Both the position numbers and the translations under genes were made by a program. The notes below the pieces were generated by a model. That model was not told the origin of the DNA, ran no database searches, and saw only the letters and a program-made list of their open reading frames with translations. From the NCBI GenBank assembly GCA_903885795.1, contig CAISJV010000027.1, positions 22,943 to 86,942 on the forward strand: 64,000 nucleotides of DNA, given 5' to 3'. Shown piece after piece: positions 20,022 through 52,028 of the stretch; positions within the stretch are counted from its first letter, which is position 1, and every line of letters starts with the position of its first letter. The DNA is from an uncultured delta proteobacterium. Lineage in GTDB: Bacteria; Desulfobacterota; Syntrophia; Syntrophales; UBA8958.

Positions 20022-21296
20022 TCAGAAGCCAAATATGCCCCGCAGTCGATCTTTCACTCCTTCTTTGGATTTTACAGAATCGGAACCAGAATCCTCGTCC
20101 ACAGTCTGGGAGCCGCTTGGATCATCATCCTGGGATTTGGGTTGTTGTCTGCTTTTTGTTGAGGAATTACCTCTTCTGCTGCCATCATCAGTTGCCATCA
20201 ATGAAGTCATACCAGTTGATTTGAGACGAACCTTGACCGACCATTTGGGATCCCATGACTGCCTGGGATCCTTGGGCTTGGGCGGGTGAATCAGGTTCAG
20301 CTCTTCGCCATAGGCGATGAACTGCAACATGGCCCCTTGCGAATTCTTGAAGATGGGAGGTATGGTACAGGTTGTGCGGGAGGCATCCAGCACCACCTTT
20401 TCCTTAATAAAACGGTTCACATCACCGGGTGTCAGATAATCCTGCAGCGCAAAACCGATCTCGGGCACCTCACTGGCAGACCAGAATATTGAGTCACCGG
20501 ATAGCTGGTCATGCCCCATGGCGGCGGCAAAATATCCGATTGCTGTGGTAATTGGCTGCCATTCCACCTTCATGGCACCGGACGGAGTCGCTTGGATCGG
20601 TAAAAACTCCACCGATTCCATGAAGTCACGTTTCTTGTCCAGCACAAACGAAATATCCGGCAGATAATTTCCTTTAACCAGATGGCTTCCAACCAGCGAA
20701 CTGTCCTTGGGAACATCAGTCCGTTCTTCACTATTGGGCCATTCTCCATATATCCAGCCCTTATGGGCAGAAGGCGGAATCTGGCGCGTCGGTGATCTGC
20801 CGGCAAAGGCCTTGCCGAAATCGGCGGGGCTCATCTTGGCAGTGTCAATCACTCTGGGCTGGCCTTTGCCCACTGTCTCGCCACAACCCCAGTAAATCAG
20901 CATGCGTACCTTCGGTTTTTCAAGCTTCTCCGGTTTTTCCCCCTTACTCGGCATATATTCATGCTTCTCCACCTGCGGCGTCACAAGAGGCAGCGACGCT
21001 CCCATGTTCAGGCCGGGAGGGATCACGTGAGATGCCTGTGGCTTGTCGGTTACCACCAGAGGTGATTCGGTCTTCAGAAGCAGTTCACGACGCGGACCAA
21101 GGCCCATTTTCCCGCCCATCAGAGCTGCCATGCCGGTCATCTGTCCCGACATCCCGGGGATACTCTGATTGGTTGTGGCAATACTCATCCAGTAATGGGG
21201 ATAGGGCTTGATTTTTTCGGCTGCATGGCCGGGTATCGCTATGAGCAACAACAAACAGCAAGGGGCTAAAAGATCAACTAAGCGGAAACCTCTCAT
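20022..21296 (-). CDS. secreted protein of unknown function
   Basis: 424 aa. Signal peptide MRGFRLVDLLAPCCLLLLIAIPGHAAE. Met/Gly-rich stretch SIPGMSGQMTGMAALMGGKMG. Acidic/Ser-rich C-terminal tail ending RGIFGF. I recognise no family. Confidence 0.6.
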   Translation of the reverse strand: MRGFRLVDLLAPCCLLLLIAIPGHAAEKIKPYPHYWMSIATTNQSIPGMSGQMTGMAALMGGKMGLGPRRELLLKTESPLVVTDKPQASHVIPPGLNMGASLPLVTPQVEKHEYMPSKGEKPEKLEKPKVRMLIYWGCGETVGKGQPRVIDTAKMSPADFGKAFAGRSPTRQIPPSAHKGWIYGEWPNSEERTDVPKDSSLVGSHLVKGNYLPDISFVLDKKRDFMESVEFLPIQATPSGAMKVEWQPITTAIGYFAAAMGHDQLSGDSIFWSASEVPEIGFALQDYLTPGDVNRFIKEKVVLDASRTTCTIPPIFKNSQGAMLQFIAYGEELNLIHPPKPKDPRQSWDPKWSVKVRLKSTGMTSLMATDDGSRRGNSSTKSRQQPKSQDDDPSGSQTVDEDSGSDSVKSKEGVKDRLRGIFGF

Positions 21297-21769
21297 AATT
21301 CCTCCTTCACATGAGTATTGGAAACTCCAACTTGTGATACGCGATGTTCCATCGACAAACTAATGTGTGTAGACCTGAATCGCTCGGCACGTCTTCTGAC
21401 ACTCAACTATAACAGATCACGCATTTTATCAAACGCAATTTTTCATGCACGCAATTTTTCATGCACGCCTTTTTCCATGATGCGTTATAAATGGATGTAG
21501 CCATCCCGGGAGTGGTCTGGTCTTGATAGGGGTGATCAATAAGCATCTAAATCTTCTGCCCATGCAAGAAAGGCATGCCTGTTGTTTTCAGTAAATGCTC
21601 TTTAGCAGGATAAACCCGTCATATCTTCATCCCTGAATGTCAAGATGAGAATATGGAAGACTAGCGGGTAGGGGAATCGAGTAACATCAAATTGACATTA
21701 TCACCAAAAAATGTCTTTCCGCTGAGCTTGGGACTGTGCTATATACCTCGCCGCCTGGAGGTGTGAATC

Positions 21770-23038
21770 GTGGCTATAAATGCTGAGCCTCAGGTTTTTT
21801 TGTTTTTAAGCGAAATCCTGGGACAACCAATCATAGGGCCGGAAGGCCAGTCGATGGGCAAGATTATGGATCTGGTAGCGACTCTGGCCGAGCCCTATCC
21901 CATTGTCACCGACGCCCTGCTCTCCCCCGAGGAGGGTCAGAAGACGGCGCTGTTTTATCGTTTCCCCGGTATTGAGGAAGGGCAGCGTCCATTCAAGGCG
22001 AATAGCGTCTGTCCCGATGATTTCCGGGCGCCATTCTTGCGGGACAACGAGCTGCTCCTGAAGGATGCCCTCCTGGACAAGCAGATTGTGGATACCCACG
22101 GCGCCAAGGTACTCCGGGTCAACGATCTACAGTTTCTCACGGCCCGTCAGGGACTCCACCTGGTTCATGTGGATGTAGGATTCCGGGGTCTCATGCGTCG
22201 CTCCGGACTGGAGAAGGTGGTTGATCTTTTTCTCCGTGGGCTTTTCGACTACGACCTGCCCAATCAGTTCATCTCATGGAGGTTTGTCCAACCCATTTCC
22301 TCGCCTGATCTCCTGCGCCTGAAGATCGCTCAGGACCGTCTCTCCCGAATTCATCCGGCTGATCTGGCAGATATTATTGAAGACCTTGATATGCGTCAGC
22401 GTAGCGCTGTTTTCCAGTCTCTCGATGTGGAAACAGCGGCAGAGACTCTTGAGGAAACGGATCCGAAGATTCAGGTCAGTCTGATCGAAAACATGAATGC
22501 TGCCGAAGCATCGGACATTATAGAAGAAATGTCTTTGAGTGAAGCGGCTGATCTTTTGGGCGATCTATCCAAAGAGAAGGCGGAAGGGATCTTGAAGGAG
22601 ATGGAGCAGGATATGGCGGATGACGTCAAGGAGCTTCTCACTCACCCTGAAGAAGAGGCGGGGGGGCTGATGACTTCTGCCTTTCTTCATTTCTTGCCTT
22701 CGGCGACGGTTGACAAAGTCATTTCAACCATCCGGCACGAAGCCGAGGATATGGATTTTATCTATTATGTTTATGTTGTTGACGAGGACGAGCATCTCCT
22801 GGGAATGATCAGTCTAAAAGAACTCCTCGTGGCGCCAGGTGAGGCCCTGCTGGCAGAACTTATGGAAGACAGGGTGGTTTCCGTCCATCTTGATGAGGAT
22901 AAAGATGAAATCGCCGATCTTTTTGCAAAATATGGCATGATGGCAATTCCGGTTGTAGATGATGGGAATAGAATCAAGGGGGTGATCCTTTTCAAGAATC
23001 TCCTCGAAGTCGTGGCCCCCCACTTGGGTAAGAAATAA
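21770..23038 (+). CDS. soluble MgtE-like protein: PRC-barrel-like N-terminus, MgtE N-domain and CBS pair, no membrane domain
   Basis: GTG start 8 nt after GGAGG. IHPADLADIIEDLDMRQRSAVFQSLDVETAAETLEE... matches the MgtE_N domain. A CBS pair follows (YVYVVDEDEHLLGMISLKELL..., MMAIPVVDDGNRIKGVILFKNLL). The protein ends without any TM segment. Confidence 0.8.
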   Translation: MAINAEPQVFLFLSEILGQPIIGPEGQSMGKIMDLVATLAEPYPIVTDALLSPEEGQKTALFYRFPGIEEGQRPFKANSVCPDDFRAPFLRDNELLLKDALLDKQIVDTHGAKVLRVNDLQFLTARQGLHLVHVDVGFRGLMRRSGLEKVVDLFLRGLFDYDLPNQFISWRFVQPISSPDLLRLKIAQDRLSRIHPADLADIIEDLDMRQRSAVFQSLDVETAAETLEETDPKIQVSLIENMNAAEASDIIEEMSLSEAADLLGDLSKEKAEGILKEMEQDMADDVKELLTHPEEEAGGLMTSAFLHFLPSATVDKVISTIRHEAEDMDFIYYVYVVDEDEHLLGMISLKELLVAPGEALLAELMEDRVVSVHLDEDKDEIADLFAKYGMMAIPVVDDGNRIKGVILFKNLLEVVAPHLGKK

Positions 23039-23063
23039 TCATGGACGAAGGCGAAGGTCATCA

Positions 23064-24344
23064 ATGCCGGAAAATGAAGATAAATCACCAAAGAATATCT
23101 TTCATCGCCTTTCCCGGCGGGGATTCTGGCGATCCATGGGATTGCTTTTTGCTCTCATCGGGCCGGGGATCATTACCTCCAACGTGGACAATGACGCAGG
23201 CGGCATTACCACCTATTCTCTGGCCGGGGCTCAATTTGGTCTCTCCCTCATCTGGATACTCCTTCCGATCACCATTGCCCTGATCATTATTCAGGAGATG
23301 TGCGCCCGGATGGGCGTCGTTTCCGGGAAAGGATTGTCAGACCTCATTCGGGAACGTTTCGGAGCCAGGATTACGGTCTATCTTATGATCGTCCTTTTTT
23401 TAGCCAATCTCGGCAACACTATTTCCGAGTTTGCCGGAATTGCTGCCAGCCTGGAGATCTTCGGTGTCAGTAAATATATCTCTGTTCCTTTCGGGGCTTT
23501 TTTCGTCTGGTGGCTAGTCGTCAAAGGCAATTATAAATCCGTTGAGAAGGTCTTTCTGGTTGCCTGTCTTTTCTATGTCTCTTACATTATTTCCGGTTTT
23601 ATGGGGAAGCCGGACTGGGGACAGATTGGCAAGGCGCTGATCACGCCTACAATCCATTCCGATCCCGCTTTTCTGACCATGGCCGTTGGTATTGTTGGAA
23701 CCACCATTGCCCCGTGGATGCAGTTTTATCTCCAGTCCTCTGTGGTAGATAAGGGACTCAAGGCTGAAGACTATGCCTATACAAGGGTCGATATTATTGT
23801 CGGTTCTTTTACGGTCAACATCGTGGCTTTCTTCATTATCATGCTGTGTGCCGTGACGCTGTTTCAGCAGGGTATCAAGATTGAAACAGCCAAAGACGCG
23901 GCTCAGGCCTTGGCCCCTCTTGCCGGTGCGTACTGTACCTGGCTTTTCGCTTTTGGCCTGTTGAACGCTTCCCTCTTTGCCGCTTCGATCCTGCCTTTAT
24001 CGACAGCCTATACGATCTGTGAGGCCTTTGGGTGGGAATCCAGTGTAAATCACAAGTTCACTGAAGCACCTCAATTTTATTGGCTTTATTCCCTGATGAT
24101 CTTTCTCGGCGCTGCGATTATTCTGTTTCCGAACATGCCCCTTGTTGCCATCATGTTTTACTCCCAGGTCATCAACGGGATGCTTTTACCCTTCATTCTG
24201 ATTTTTATGCTCCTGTTGATTAACGATCGTCGGATCATGGGCGATTATGTGAACAGTAAATTCATGAATGGCGTAACCTGGCTCACGGTAGGCGTTTTGA
24301 TTATGCTATCGGTGGCGATGGTGATCAGCGCCGTGTTTTCATGA
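23064..24344 (+). CDS. NRAMP/SLC11-family transporter with an NRMT-type (putative Mg2+) metal site
   Basis: 426 aa with ~11 TM segments. The TM1 motif reads NVDNDAGG, where canonical NRAMPs have DPGN. The TM6 motif reads GTTIAPWMQFYLQS, where canonical NRAMPs have GA-x-IMPHNLYLHS. Confidence 0.85.
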   Translation: MPENEDKSPKNIFHRLSRRGFWRSMGLLFALIGPGIITSNVDNDAGGITTYSLAGAQFGLSLIWILLPITIALIIIQEMCARMGVVSGKGLSDLIRERFGARITVYLMIVLFLANLGNTISEFAGIAASLEIFGVSKYISVPFGAFFVWWLVVKGNYKSVEKVFLVACLFYVSYIISGFMGKPDWGQIGKALITPTIHSDPAFLTMAVGIVGTTIAPWMQFYLQSSVVDKGLKAEDYAYTRVDIIVGSFTVNIVAFFIIMLCAVTLFQQGIKIETAKDAAQALAPLAGAYCTWLFAFGLLNASLFAASILPLSTAYTICEAFGWESSVNHKFTEAPQFYWLYSLMIFLGAAIILFPNMPLVAIMFYSQVINGMLLPFILIFMLLLINDRRIMGDYVNSKFMNGVTWLTVGVLIMLSVAMVISAVFS

Positions 24345-25115: not shown

Positions 25116-25628
25116 TTATGAGTAGATAGTGGTCAGTGAAATGACAACCATCGTAAAGGCGAGAGAGCCCTTTACGCAAATTCCCGCGATCCGTCCTAAA
25201 ATCATTCCGTAGCCGGCCCGAAATGCCGGTTTCAAACGCCGCTGCCTGATCATTTCAACAGCGAATACCCCGGCGAATCCCCCCAAAAAAGCCCCGGCAA
25301 TAGACCCGAAGCCAAGAAAGAAGGGGGTCAGCAGCGTTGCCCCGATCATGCTTCCCAGAATAGACGCCCAGAATCCTTTCACAGACAGGCCAAACTGCAA
25401 GGCAACAGACATGCCGATAAAAAATTCCAGCGTTTCTGCTAGGACCGCGAGCACCAACATGATCAGGATCACCTTCCAGCCAATCGGGTTGAAGCCGGTT
25501 ACCACTGCATAGATGATGACGTCGGCGGCAATGATGATGGTCCCCGGCAGTCCGAAAATAATCGAAAAGAACCCTGAGAAAAGAACGATGATAAACAGGC
25601 TTATGCCGATGATCTCTATTGGCGACAA
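25116..25628 (-). CDS. DUF456-family membrane protein
   Basis: Hydrophobic protein with the FGLPGTIIIAADVIIY motif. I prefer a TTG start at 25628 (GAAGGA 9 nt upstream), which abuts the secF stop. The longer track ORF would overlap secF by 62 nt. Confidence 0.6.
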   Translation of the reverse strand: MSPIEIIGISLFIIVLFSGFFSIIFGLPGTIIIAADVIIYAVVTGFNPIGWKVILIMLVLAVLAETLEFFIGMSVALQFGLSVKGFWASILGSMIGATLLTPFFLGFGSIAGAFLGGFAGVFAVEMIRQRRLKPAFRAGYGMILGRIAGICVKGSLAFTMVVISLTTIYS

Positions 25629-25632
25629 TTTG

Positions 25633-26538
25633 TCATTTCCTTCTTGGGCGCGATGGCCAGTATTTTTCCCAGGCAAGGACCACGGGACTGGCAATGAACA
25701 CGGAGGAGTAGGTTCCGAAGATTACTCCAACGAGGAGGGCGAAGGCAAAGTCATTGATCACAGCCCCACCGAATACATATAGAACCGCTACGACCAGAAC
25801 TACGGTGAATGATGTCAGAATGGTCCGGCTCAGGGTCTGGTTGATGCTCTCGTTCATCACCGTAGGCAGGTCCTTTTTCATATTTTTAGGGATATTTTCC
25901 CGGACACGGTCGAAAACGACGATGGTATCGTGGATAGAGTATCCGATGATAGTCAGCAGAGCAGCTACAATGGTGAGGGTGAACTCTTTCCCCAAAAGGG
26001 AAAAGATGCCCAGGACCACGATGACATCATGAATGACCCCGACGATGCCACCCACGGCGAAGCGCAATTCGAAACGGATGGCGATATAGATGAGCATGCC
26101 GACCCAGGAGAAGACCACCGCCAAAATGGCTTTTTTCGTCAGATCCTTACCCACCTTCGGGCCGACAACCTCCACCCGCTGGACCTCCAGGTTTCCTTTT
26201 CCATAAGTGGCGTTGAGGGCCTCTTCGATGCGGCCGGCCAGTCCTTTCACGTCGGAAGTGGATTCGGCGGTTCGGACCACGACTTCATTGACGCCAAAGG
26301 GCTGAATGATAGCGTCCATGATGCCAATTCCCGTCATGACCTTTCTGATGCCGTCGGCAGATGTCTCCTGTTTGAATTTGATCTGCACGAGGGTGCCCCC
26401 CGCAAAATCTATCCCGTAGGTAAATCCCTTCCATACAAAGGATACGACGCACAGCATTGTCAGCACAAGTGAAAAGATGATGCACCATTTCATTGCACCG
26501 ACGAAATTTATATTGATACCTGGTTTGACGAGTTCCAT
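25633..26538 (-). CDS. secF: protein translocase subunit SecF
   Basis: 301 aa. GINFVG..GIDFAGGT and the conserved C-terminal TM bundle. It lies downstream of secD. Confidence 0.95.
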   Translation of the reverse strand: MELVKPGININFVGAMKWCIIFSLVLTMLCVVSFVWKGFTYGIDFAGGTLVQIKFKQETSADGIRKVMTGIGIMDAIIQPFGVNEVVVRTAESTSDVKGLAGRIEEALNATYGKGNLEVQRVEVVGPKVGKDLTKKAILAVVFSWVGMLIYIAIRFELRFAVGGIVGVIHDVIVVLGIFSLLGKEFTLTIVAALLTIIGYSIHDTIVVFDRVRENIPKNMKKDLPTVMNESINQTLSRTILTSFTVVLVVAVLYVFGGAVINDFAFALLVGVIFGTYSSVFIASPVVLAWEKYWPSRPRRK

Positions 26539-49502: not shown

Positions 49503-52028
49503 TTATTTGTCAACAAAAAAAGTTGCCGTTTTCGTCAGTCTGGTTTCGAGAGTGGTGGCAACATCCAGGCAAAGGGCATGGACAAGAATATCCTCGGCAC
49601 GGACAGCGCCTTCGTTACAGAAACGGACATCCATTATGATCTCGCGGACGGAACGATCAAAGGCAAGATAGGAAACGAGGGGCCGGATATCCCTGATCAC
49701 TGTCCGTTCCTTGATCGTCTTCGTGATAGGAAATTGTTGAGTATTTAAAAAGGTATCTATATGTTCTTCCAGACAAACCAGCCTATTTTCGTCAAGGGTG
49801 TCCGGCAGGAGGGCGCGATATTGGAAACCCCGGATCAATTCGTTCAGAGAACGGGCACCCTGGGGAAGCTCCGCCATTTCAAACACCGTCATCCCCTCAG
49901 GAAGATAACGATTGATCAGTTCCGGCAGCGCCGCGACTGCCGACGCCGGTTTGATAACCTGGATGTCGCAATATTCCCCTTCACTTTCCAGTCCAACGGC
50001 GGCGGCGACGGCAAAAGAGATCTTGGGATGGGGGTGGAAACCCTCCGAATAGATGAACTGCAGGCCGCTCTGGACTATCCCCCGGGTCAGGGCGGAGGCG
50101 CTCTCCAGGTGAGACAGATAGCGGGACAGACCCTTTTTCTTGAAGCTTAATCGGAACCGGCGAGAATCTATAGAAAGGGAAACCGTTTCCCGGGTGGCCG
50201 GTTCAGCAGCGGGGGTGGTGTCACCGATGGGGGCGGGTGCTCCCGCCGCTTCTTCCTCGGCGCGGACGGGCCGGATGTCGATATGGTCGCAGACGCCGCA
50301 TTGATAACAGCCGTCAAGGCGGCAGTCCGCCGTCAGAGTTTCATTATGTGCCTTTTGCGCTTCTTCCAGGAGGAATTGACGGTCGAGACCGCAGTCGATA
50401 TGGTCCCAGGGGAAAGCAGTCTCCGGGGGGCGCTCGCAAAGAAATGCGGCTGGTTCGATTCCGAGCTGGGCTATGGCATTTTCCCAGTGATCATTGCGGA
50501 ATTGGTCGCTCCAGCCGTCGAAACGGCAGCCGTTGCGATAGGCGGCCTCAACAAGTGGGCCCAGGGATTCATCTCCCCGGGAAAACAGCCCTTCGAGAAG
50601 GCTCATCCGGGCGTCATGCCATTTGATCTGGATGTTGCGATGGCGCAATCGGGATTTGAAAAAGGACTGCTTCGCGAAGATTTCTTCCAGGCCGACCTGG
50701 CGTTCCCATTGAAAAGGGGTGTGGGGTTTGGGGACGAAAGTGGAAAGGCTGACCGTGACCTGCCCACGGTTTTTTGACGTCCGCAGCACCTTATGGGCCA
50801 GAGACGCTATTCCCTCCAGGTCCGCAGCTTCCTCTCCCGGGAGACCGATCATGAAATAGAGCTTGACCGCCCGCCATCCCGCATCAAAGACCAATGCCGA
50901 GGTTTTCAGGAGATCCTCTTCCGTGTTTCCCTTGTTGATGGAATTTCTCAGCCGCTGGGTTCCCGCTTCGGGGGCCAAGGTGAAACTCGTCTTTCGGACC
51001 CGTTTGATGGCCTCGATGAGGGAGACGCTCAAGGTCTCGACGCGCAGGGAGGGCAGGGCGAGGGCAATCCGCTGGGAGTAATATCGATCCATCAGCACCG
51101 GCAGGAGGGTCTCGATGCAGGAATAATCGCCGGAACTCAGGGACAGGAGGGATAGTTCTTCCTGTCCGGTGGCGGCGAGCATGGCGTCGGCCATATTTTG
51201 AAGGAGGGCGGGATGTCTTTCCCGGACCGGGCGCCAGACCATGCCGGCCTGGCAGAACCGGCAGCCCCGGGTGCAGCCCCGGGCAATCTCCAGCACTACC
51301 CGGTCGTGAATGGTTTTCATCAGAGGGGTCAGCGGTTTTACCGGCCCTATCCAGGCGTTCAGATCGGCAACAATCCGTTTCCCGATCTTCCGCTCGGGGC
51401 TGTGGACGGCGGGGACATATACCCCTTCGATATCGGCAAGGGCGGCAAGGATCACGTTCCGGCGTGTGTTCCTTCCCTTTTCCCTGATCATAGCGGCGGC
51501 AATCTCCATGATGACCTCTTCCCCTTCGCCGATGACGAAGGCGTCGATAAAGGCAGACATGGGGGCGGGGTTGAAACAGCAGGGCCCCCCGGCGATCACG
51601 ACGGGGTCGCCGTCCCTTCTGTCTTCGCGGCGGATGGAGATACCGCCCAGGTCGAGCATAGCGAGGACATTTGTGAAGGAGAGCTCATATTGGAGGGAAA
51701 ACCCTACCAGATCAAAGGCCTGCAAGGGGGTTCGGGATTCGATGGTAGGGAGGAGGATGCCGTAACGGCGCATCTGGCCTTCCATGTCGGGCCAGGGGGC
51801 GTAACAGCGCTCGGCGACGATATCGTCCTGTCTGTTCAAGATCTCATACAAGATCTGGATGCCCAGGTGGGACATCCCGACTTCGTAAGTATCCGGAAAG
51901 GCAAGGGCAACGCTGAGCCGGCAGAAATGTCGATCCTTGTGGACGGCGTTGATTTCCCCGCCGATATAGCGACTGGGCTTGGAGCAGGCGAGCAGAACGT
52001 CGTCCAGTGTTTTTTGATAATCAGGCAT
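49503..52028 (-). CDS. B12-binding-domain radical SAM protein fused to a DUF2344-like C-terminal domain
   Basis: 841 aa. The CTRGCRFC cluster motif lies after a B12-binding-like N-terminus. The C-terminal ~230 aa (FRLSFKKKGLSRYLSHLE...) resembles the DUF2344 module often fused or adjacent to this radical SAM family. Confidence 0.75.
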   Translation of the reverse strand: MPDYQKTLDDVLLACSKPSRYIGGEINAVHKDRHFCRLSVALAFPDTYEVGMSHLGIQILYEILNRQDDIVAERCYAPWPDMEGQMRRYGILLPTIESRTPLQAFDLVGFSLQYELSFTNVLAMLDLGGISIRREDRRDGDPVVIAGGPCCFNPAPMSAFIDAFVIGEGEEVIMEIAAAMIREKGRNTRRNVILAALADIEGVYVPAVHSPERKIGKRIVADLNAWIGPVKPLTPLMKTIHDRVVLEIARGCTRGCRFCQAGMVWRPVRERHPALLQNMADAMLAATGQEELSLLSLSSGDYSCIETLLPVLMDRYYSQRIALALPSLRVETLSVSLIEAIKRVRKTSFTLAPEAGTQRLRNSINKGNTEEDLLKTSALVFDAGWRAVKLYFMIGLPGEEAADLEGIASLAHKVLRTSKNRGQVTVSLSTFVPKPHTPFQWERQVGLEEIFAKQSFFKSRLRHRNIQIKWHDARMSLLEGLFSRGDESLGPLVEAAYRNGCRFDGWSDQFRNDHWENAIAQLGIEPAAFLCERPPETAFPWDHIDCGLDRQFLLEEAQKAHNETLTADCRLDGCYQCGVCDHIDIRPVRAEEEAAGAPAPIGDTTPAAEPATRETVSLSIDSRRFRLSFKKKGLSRYLSHLESASALTRGIVQSGLQFIYSEGFHPHPKISFAVAAAVGLESEGEYCDIQVIKPASAVAALPELINRYLPEGMTVFEMAELPQGARSLNELIRGFQYRALLPDTLDENRLVCLEEHIDTFLNTQQFPITKTIKERTVIRDIRPLVSYLAFDRSVREIIMDVRFCNEGAVRAEDILVHALCLDVATTLETRLTKTATFFVDK

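Follow-up and report, generated by a model that had tools for sequence, protein, structure and literature searches.

What does a soluble protein built from the cytoplasmic part of the Mg2+ channel MgtE do when its gene lies directly in front of a transporter of the NRAMP-related Mg2+ transporter (NRMT) clade? The question is raised by two genes in a 64,000-nt stretch of DNA from an uncultured Syntrophales bacterium (assembly GCA_903885795.1, contig CAISJV010000027.1, positions 22,943 to 86,942), which we call the window and whose positions we use as coordinates. The two genes form a bicistronic operon of a Syntrophales-type bacterium, and no terminator-like site was found between them:

21770 to 23038, + strand: gene 1, a soluble PRC-PRC-MgtE_N-CBS-CBS protein, the NRMT-associated partner (422 aa, GTG start)
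23039 to 23063, + strand: 25-nt spacer between the genes, with a Shine-Dalgarno-like GAAGG at 23053-23057, 6 nt 5' of the gene 2 ATG
23064 to 24344, + strand: gene 2, an NRMT-clade transporter of the SLC11/NRAMP family (426 aa, ATG start)

The answer we favour, and which we hold with even confidence, is that gene 2 encodes an uncoupled Mg2+/Mn2+ importer and that gene 1 serves it as a dedicated regulatory subunit in the cytoplasm.

Gene 2 matches the Pfam Nramp family (PF01566, E 1.1e-106). Its best PDB match is EleNRMT (7qia, E 7.4e-122), with residues 24-424 of gene 2 aligned to residues 35-435 of 438, versus E 7e-31 for the best canonical NRAMP, DraNramp. EleNRMT is described as having 11 membrane-spanning segments (PMC8806188). 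The metal-site motifs in transmembrane segments (TM) 1 and 6 align as follows:

23193 to 23204, + strand: TM1 motif D44-A-G-G47, aligned to DAGG in EleNRMT and D-P-G-N in DraNramp
23697 to 23717, + strand: TM6 motif G212-T-T-I-A-P-W218, aligned to GTTIAPW in EleNRMT and G-A-T-V-M-P-H in DraNramp

The four substitutions (Asn to Gly, Ala to Thr, Met to Ala and His to Trp) sit at metal-site positions and are identical to those in EleNRMT, and the equivalent of EleNRMT Gln379 is conserved as well. The TM1 motif was also tabulated across representatives of the NRMT clade. According to the EleNRMT report, the protein moves Mg2+ and Mn2+ but leaves Ca2+ behind, and is not coupled to H+; its Mg2+ transport depends critically on Thr224, and a role of Gly58 is also described (PMC8806188). 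Because its site residues are near-identical to those of EleNRMT, gene 2 is predicted to be an uncoupled Mg2+/Mn2+ importer, one that by this analogy most likely takes up hydrated Mg2+ (and Mn2+) with no coupling to protons.

Gene 1 is divided as follows:

21791 to 22039, + strand: PRC-barrel-like unit 1, residues 8-90, variable; PRC scores above cutoff at the same position in homologues, and the model has strands at 9-64
22049 to 22297, + strand: PRC-like unit 2 with two helices and an ISW..VQP motif, residues 94-176, where conservation within the N-terminal module is highest
22349 to 22654, + strand: MgtE_N domain, residues 194-295 (Pfam PF03448, E 7.6e-26; model helices 196-291)
22667 to 23017, + strand: CBS pair, residues 300-416; two Pfam CBS stretches reach residue 415, and the protein ends 6 residues after the pair

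The best PDB match of gene 1 is the cytosolic domain of Thermus thermophilus MgtE (TtMgtE; 2yvy, E 1.9e-34, residues 188-416), and 2yvy also ranks first in a Foldseek search with the AlphaFold2 model (E 2e-20). That model, made from a deeper alignment, has a mean predicted local distance difference test score (pLDDT) of 81.9, with the N-terminal module mostly at 70-90; it replaces a run on a shallow alignment with an uninformative N-terminus (pLDDT 52.6). The N-terminal half of the model consists of two beta-rich units (strands at 9-64 and 94-135), helices at 138-159 and a disordered linker at 178-189, followed by the MgtE_N helices and then the CBS pair. The MgtE_N part is strongly acidic, with 31 Asp and Glu versus 9 Lys and Arg in the 109 residues 188-296. 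In MgtE, the sensor holds its own pore shut via a plug helix (PMC5882242). The alignment of gene 1 to TtMgtE stops at TtMgtE residue 253, and the end of gene 1 is the end of the CBS pair, at about TtMgtE residue 253-259. The NCBIfam mgtE model (TIGR00400) matches over positions 23-252 of 450 only, at 159 bits against a cutoff of 232.75. By both profile and structure-sequence alignments, therefore, gene 1 is not an MgtE channel, because the plug helix and the C-terminal transmembrane pore domain are absent.

What, then, is the N-terminal module? In gene 1 alone the Pfam PRC match (PF05239, residues 11-40) is below threshold (E 0.0024, 18.3 bits against a gathering cutoff of 21.2). At the level of the family, PRC is detected at E<=0.01 in 50 of 53 diverse partners, with a best E of 2.8e-11. 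Isolated N-terminal modules give a main PRC match at about residues 8-80 and, in several members, a second at about residues 88-133; hhalign of unit 1 against unit 2 gives a probability of 71% (E 3.6e-5). A PDB profile search returned weak, non-significant matches (E 0.3-2), seven of the nine being PRC barrels. We conclude with moderate confidence that the module is tandem PRC-like. At about 185 aa, it is present in every complete partner. Ten columns are invariant across the 53 partners, and six of these (D103, Q105, R116, D119, R143 and R144) fall in PRC-like unit 2 and the following helix. The segment at residues 94-176 has 15 of 83 columns conserved at 90% or more, and the median identity of the family to gene 1 is 0.45 there, 0.47 in MgtE_N and 0.20 in unit 1.

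A sequence-only reading of the window had already placed both open reading frames on one strand with their 25-nt gap, given gene 1 a PRC-like N-terminus, an MgtE_N domain and a CBS pair, and taken gene 2 for an 11-TM NRAMP homologue of the NRMT clade with four substitutions at the metal site; all of this agrees with the searches and alignments above. It also had gene 1 stop where the MgtE membrane domain begins. The membrane domain is indeed absent, but the protein ends earlier, so that the plug helix is missing too. The same reading treated the PRC-like N-terminus as incidental, which does not fit a conserved tandem module holding most of the invariant residues.

Do the two genes belong together? 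In a forward survey, we scanned one genome per species with NRMT-site peptide patterns and a 13-sequence NRMT alignment, which gave at least 593 NRMT relatives. We examined the best 80 loci (51-80% identity), which include Thermodesulfobacteriota, Nitrospirota, Acidobacteriota, Planctomycetota, Chloroflexota, Bacteroidota, Firmicutes and others; 76 of them have enough upstream sequence. The partner lies immediately upstream on the same strand in 53 of the 76, upstream on the same strand at a distance of 0.4-4.4 kb in nine, and convergent just downstream in three, so that 65/76 have a partner within 5 kb. The other 11 have no convincing partner within 5 kb, including L041, where a weak CBS match (E 1e-8) lies 3.7 kb away. 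For the reverse survey we searched metagenome contigs for D[KR]Q[IV]VD..G, a motif specific to the partner; this retrieves N-terminal modules of 42-92% identity. An NRMT gene lies directly downstream on the same strand in 62 of 63 assessable partner loci, and the sole exception is a short, broken contig. Conservation of the adjacency, which the sequence-only reading had named as a check, is thus found from both sides, and since it recurs in most of the independent assessable loci, the pairing is not a matter of chance.

The two proteins also appear to be inherited as a unit. The MgtE_N+CBS profile and the N-module profile each match every complete partner (E 1e-10 to 1e-96). The N-module match is near-full in 55 of the partners extracted, and these have lengths of 413-452 aa. 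In 51 adjacent pairs, the two genes are a median of about 13 nt apart. The divergences of partner and NRMT correlate (Mantel r 0.69, versus a maximum of 0.16 in 999 permutations), with the partner evolving faster (mean distance 0.63 versus 0.43).

Several loci depart from the standard arrangement. In seven Acidobacteriota/Terriglobia loci (L050, L052, L060, L064, L067, L073 and L076), order and strand are kept across a gap of 0.4-4.4 kb. The gap in L076 holds a glycosyltransferase-like gene, a GMC oxidoreductase and an aldo/keto reductase, and that in L060 a PIN-domain (toxin) gene; in these two sampled cases we rejected the idea of extra system components, the genes being unrelated insertions. 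Three apparent partner-NRMT fusions (P0194, P0204 and P0219) were rejected as frameshift artefacts: all three proteins contain out-of-frame junk, and on the P0194 contig both genes are shattered into small reading frames. In a Spirochaetota metagenome-assembled genome (MAG), the gene upstream of the NRMT (L022, 4090-4986) matches the MgtE_N+CBS profile only, split over two frames; either this partner is degraded or it is a short variant. Two MAGs labelled archaeal (L051, Methanobacteriaceae; L081, Nanoarchaeota) contain the complete pair, a finding that could reflect horizontal transfer into archaea or a binning error. In a Nitrospirae MAG (L025), a group II intron match (39-182, 49.5 bits) is located about 1.5 kb 5' of the partner gene.

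The sequence-only reading took the pairing to be without prior description. It had been reported, and tested by co-expression, by Shin et al. in 2014, who found that most NrmT genes adjoin a gene for the MgtE cytoplasmic domain and that many such operons are under M-box control; they speculated that the MgtE-like fragment serves in cytoplasmic feedback regulation or as a chaperone (PMC4072509). Rescue by their Acidobacterium capsulatum transporter was complete for a Mn2+-transport mutant and partial for a Mg2+ mutant, and when the pair Acp2976 and Acp2977 was co-expressed in Mg2+-transport-deficient Bacillus subtilis the partner added no rescue (PMC4072509). Their supplements offer nothing on motifs that could be used for the A. 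capsulatum protein. The PRC module is not mentioned by Shin et al. (PMC4072509), and within the literature library searched, 'PRC-barrel' and 'MgtE' do not occur together in any paper. In the passages of the EleNRMT paper returned by keyword searches, MgtE is mentioned as a transporter only, with no partner gene (PMC8806188), and the words MgtE, synteny and operon do not occur in a 2022 review by Cellier (PMC9606685).

Is the operon under the control of Mg2+? Rfam at gathering thresholds gives zero matches in the whole window, hence no M-box, and a search for an M-box or other riboswitch upstream of gene 1 (21200-21900, down to E<=10) found nothing, so that the 470 nt in front of the gene hold no M-box-like element. 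M-box control is frequent in the family of NrmT-associated MgtE-like proteins without being a defining feature of it. Among 27 sister loci scanned, strong M-boxes stand in two Firmicutes MAGs (L023, 3444-3614, 132.7 bits; L058, 68-234, 150.8 bits), in both directly 5' of a PRC-type partner followed by an NRMT; none was found in the other 25, which are from other phyla. Because M-boxes precede these two sister operons, the architecture of PRC-type partner and NRMT appears to be tied to Mg2+ homeostasis in at least some lineages.

We mapped the TtMgtE Mg2+-site residues (taken from PMC5882242) onto gene 1 and the family of 53 partners:

E59 of TtMgtE (Mg7): E225 in gene 1; Glu or Asp in 42/53
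D95 (Mg6): D261 in gene 1; Asp in 51/53
D91 (Mg4): S257 in gene 1; Asp in 44/53
D247 (Mg4): N410 in gene 1; Asp in 43/53
D226 (Mg5): G389 in gene 1; mostly Asn in the family
D250 (Mg5): E413 in gene 1; Asp in 21/53 and Glu in 13/53

Among the 53 partners, both Mg4 carboxylates are lost only in the Syntrophales clade.

How might gene 1 act on gene 2? The domain identities, site motifs, operon structure and reciprocal linkage are observed; physical contact, the direction of regulation and the ion that is sensed are inferred. An uncoupled cation importer would need a brake, and gene 1 would supply it in trans; the reasoning is that such an importer requires feedback and that CorA and MgtE have Mg2+-sensing domains while NRMT has none. 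The acidic MgtE_N/CBS part of gene 1 would shift its conformation with the cytoplasmic level of divalent cations, the conserved PRC-like module would take over from the absent plug helix in contacting the transporter, and gene 1 would inhibit uptake when the cation is plentiful. In support, Asp stands at the equivalents of D91, D95 and D247 in 44, 51 and 43 of the 53 partners, respectively. That an MgtE-type module regulates an NRMT in trans was already suggested by the sequence-only reading; it is plausible because the gene linkage is near-obligate in both directions, and it stays at the level of a proposal. A carry-over of the MgtE gating mode itself does not hold for gene 1, which lacks the plug helix and has Ser and Asn for the Mg4 carboxylates.

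Several observations weigh against a regulatory subunit that senses Mg2+. Gene 1 has no plug helix, both of its Mg4 carboxylates are replaced and its Mg5 ligand D226 is Gly. The A. capsulatum partner gave no extra Mg2+ rescue and its transporter mainly rescued Mn2+ deficiency (PMC4072509); this is tempered by the fact that a growth-rescue assay is blind to feedback inhibition and would not reveal it. NRMTs work without a partner in cells (PMC4072509) and in proteoliposomes (PMC8806188). Eleven of the 76 NRMT loci lack a convincing partner nearby, and both surveys favour relatives of the present locus, so that their figures describe a broad clade and not all NRMTs.

One alternative is that the partner is a positive or energy-state regulator, either sensing adenine nucleotides through its CBS pair or activating or stabilising the transporter. 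CBS pairs are common nucleotide sensors, and the Foldseek matches of gene 1 include OpuCA, AcuB and IMPDH. The CBS domain of MgtE binds ATP, which tunes gating; Phe227 stacks on the adenine, and F227A abolishes ATP binding (PMC5529423). The equivalents of Y170, R187 and D188 are conservatively kept in gene 1 as Y333, K350 and E351, but at the Phe227 position gene 1 has Met and 37 of 53 partners have Leu, and Asn203 is not conserved. With its residues kept in part, conservation of ATP binding in the CBS pair is not clearly supported. An activating role, for its part, is at odds with NRMTs that function on their own. We consider this alternative unlikely, though still to be reckoned with.

A second alternative keeps the regulatory role and changes the ion: the system would be primarily an importer of Mn2+ or another transition metal, which the partner would sense in place of Mg2+. 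The rescue pattern of the A. capsulatum transporter, whose gene also has an adjacent partner, points this way (PMC4072509), as do the Mn2+ transport described for EleNRMT (PMC8806188), the absence of an M-box from the window and the loss of the Mg4-site carboxylates in the Syntrophales clade. On the other hand, the site motifs of gene 2 are identical to those of EleNRMT, including Thr at the Thr224 position that is critical for Mg2+, and M-boxes control sister operons with this architecture. We think a primarily Mn2+ system quite improbable.

The partner could also be a cytoplasmic chaperone or buffer that receives the imported ion, as Shin et al. proposed next to feedback (PMC4072509). The high acidity of MgtE_N would suit such a role, but free cellular Mg2+ is millimolar, so there is no obvious need for it, and residue conservation is highest in the PRC-like module and not in the acidic metal-binding helices; we find a chaperone very unlikely. 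That the adjacency is coincidental, with gene 1 an independent CBS protein or the remnant of a decayed MgtE, is close to negligible, being effectively refuted by linkage at 62/63 and 65/76 loci in many phyla and by the uniform length, invariant residues and co-divergence of the partner.

Returning to gene 1 as a regulatory subunit, we offer a more specific version only tentatively, and would sooner bet against it than for it: the tandem PRC-like module may be a docking adaptor that lets an MgtE-type sensor gate a LeuT-fold uniporter in trans, with D103, Q105, R116, D119, R143 and R144 as the interface. If so, NRMT and partner would constitute a two-component Mg2+ entry system with feedback control, a third architecture beside CorA and MgtE, and the first SLC11 carrier under the control of a soluble subunit. 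The matter bears on how uncoupled NRMTs avoid Mg2+/Mn2+ overload, the role of the ancillary gene having been a question since 2014. Near-obligate linkage makes this role open to direct test, and so does the PRC-like module with most of the invariant residues, since it singles out residues for mutation and delimits a candidate interface.

Upstream of gene 1 there are two signals, seen in an alignment of six upstream regions of relatives at 65-92% protein identity:

21737 to 21745, + strand: TGnTATA, an extended -10-like motif and putative promoter, conserved in the six regions
21757 to 21761, + strand: Shine-Dalgarno GGAGG of gene 1, 8 nt 5' of the GTG, invariant in the six sequences

The GTG start of gene 1 aligns to ATG or GTG starts in orthologues. 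A simple sigma-70 scan does not list the TGnTATA at 21737-21745; together with the invariant GGAGG, the motif suggests a promoter close to gene 1 and a short leader.

The nearest relatives of the locus are Syntrophales (Smithella, Syntrophus). Syntrophus gentianae has the same pair, followed by the same convergent genes for S26 signal peptidase, DUF456, SecF and SecD. In the window, the DUF456 reading frame (25116-25694, - strand, 192 aa, TTG start) shares 62 nt with the end of secF (25633-26538, - strand); the real start of the DUF456 frame is probably further downstream, since the S. gentianae orthologue has 170 aa. Upstream of the pair, a 424-aa reading frame (20022-21296, - strand) has a hydrophobic, signal-peptide-like stretch at its N-terminus and a C-terminus rich in Ser and Asp; Pfam gives no match for it, and it is not beside the pair in S. 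gentianae. The divergent intergenic region contains a 16-nt tandem repeat, ACGCAATTTTTCATGC (21433-21479, 2.9 copies, 90% matches), about 140 nt from the start of that reading frame and at a distance of about 300 nt from gene 1. The upstream alignment of relatives shows no visible conservation of this repeat, which could be an operator. Elsewhere in the window, G+C peaks at 0.595 at 50001-52000, versus about 0.51 for the window, coinciding with an 841-aa reading frame (49503-52028, - strand).

We finally compare the locus with known systems. The NrmT and MgtE-like genes of Shin et al. are the same pair, in the same order and with the same proposed feedback role. Their Clostridium acetobutylicum operon has an M-box, whereas the A. 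capsulatum pair and the present locus have none, and the tandem PRC-like N-module of gene 1 goes unmentioned there. EleNRMT (PDB 7QIA; Ramanadane et al. 2022, PMC8806188) has the same DAGG and GTTIAPW motifs as gene 2; it was studied alone and its transport measured, whereas gene 2 is known here from its sequence. T. thermophilus MgtE (2YVX, 2ZY9) is homologous to gene 1 over residues 188-416, and its acidic ligands E59 and D95 are retained; its sensor acts in cis on its own pore, while gene 1 has no plug helix or TM domain and carries the extra 185-aa PRC-like module. PRC-barrel proteins, such as the H subunit of the photosynthetic reaction centre and MTH1895, share with the partner N-module the family-level PF05239 matches. 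Unlike theirs, the partner PRC domain occurs as a duplicate in fusion with an MgtE-type sensor, and the structure matches are non-significant. The locus is therefore a new Syntrophales member of the known pair of NrmT and MgtE-like genes, for which both the pairing and the regulatory hypothesis have already been published, and what it adds is modest: a conserved tandem PRC-like module, a linkage that is near-obligate in both directions and a loss of the Mg4 ligands that is specific to the clade.

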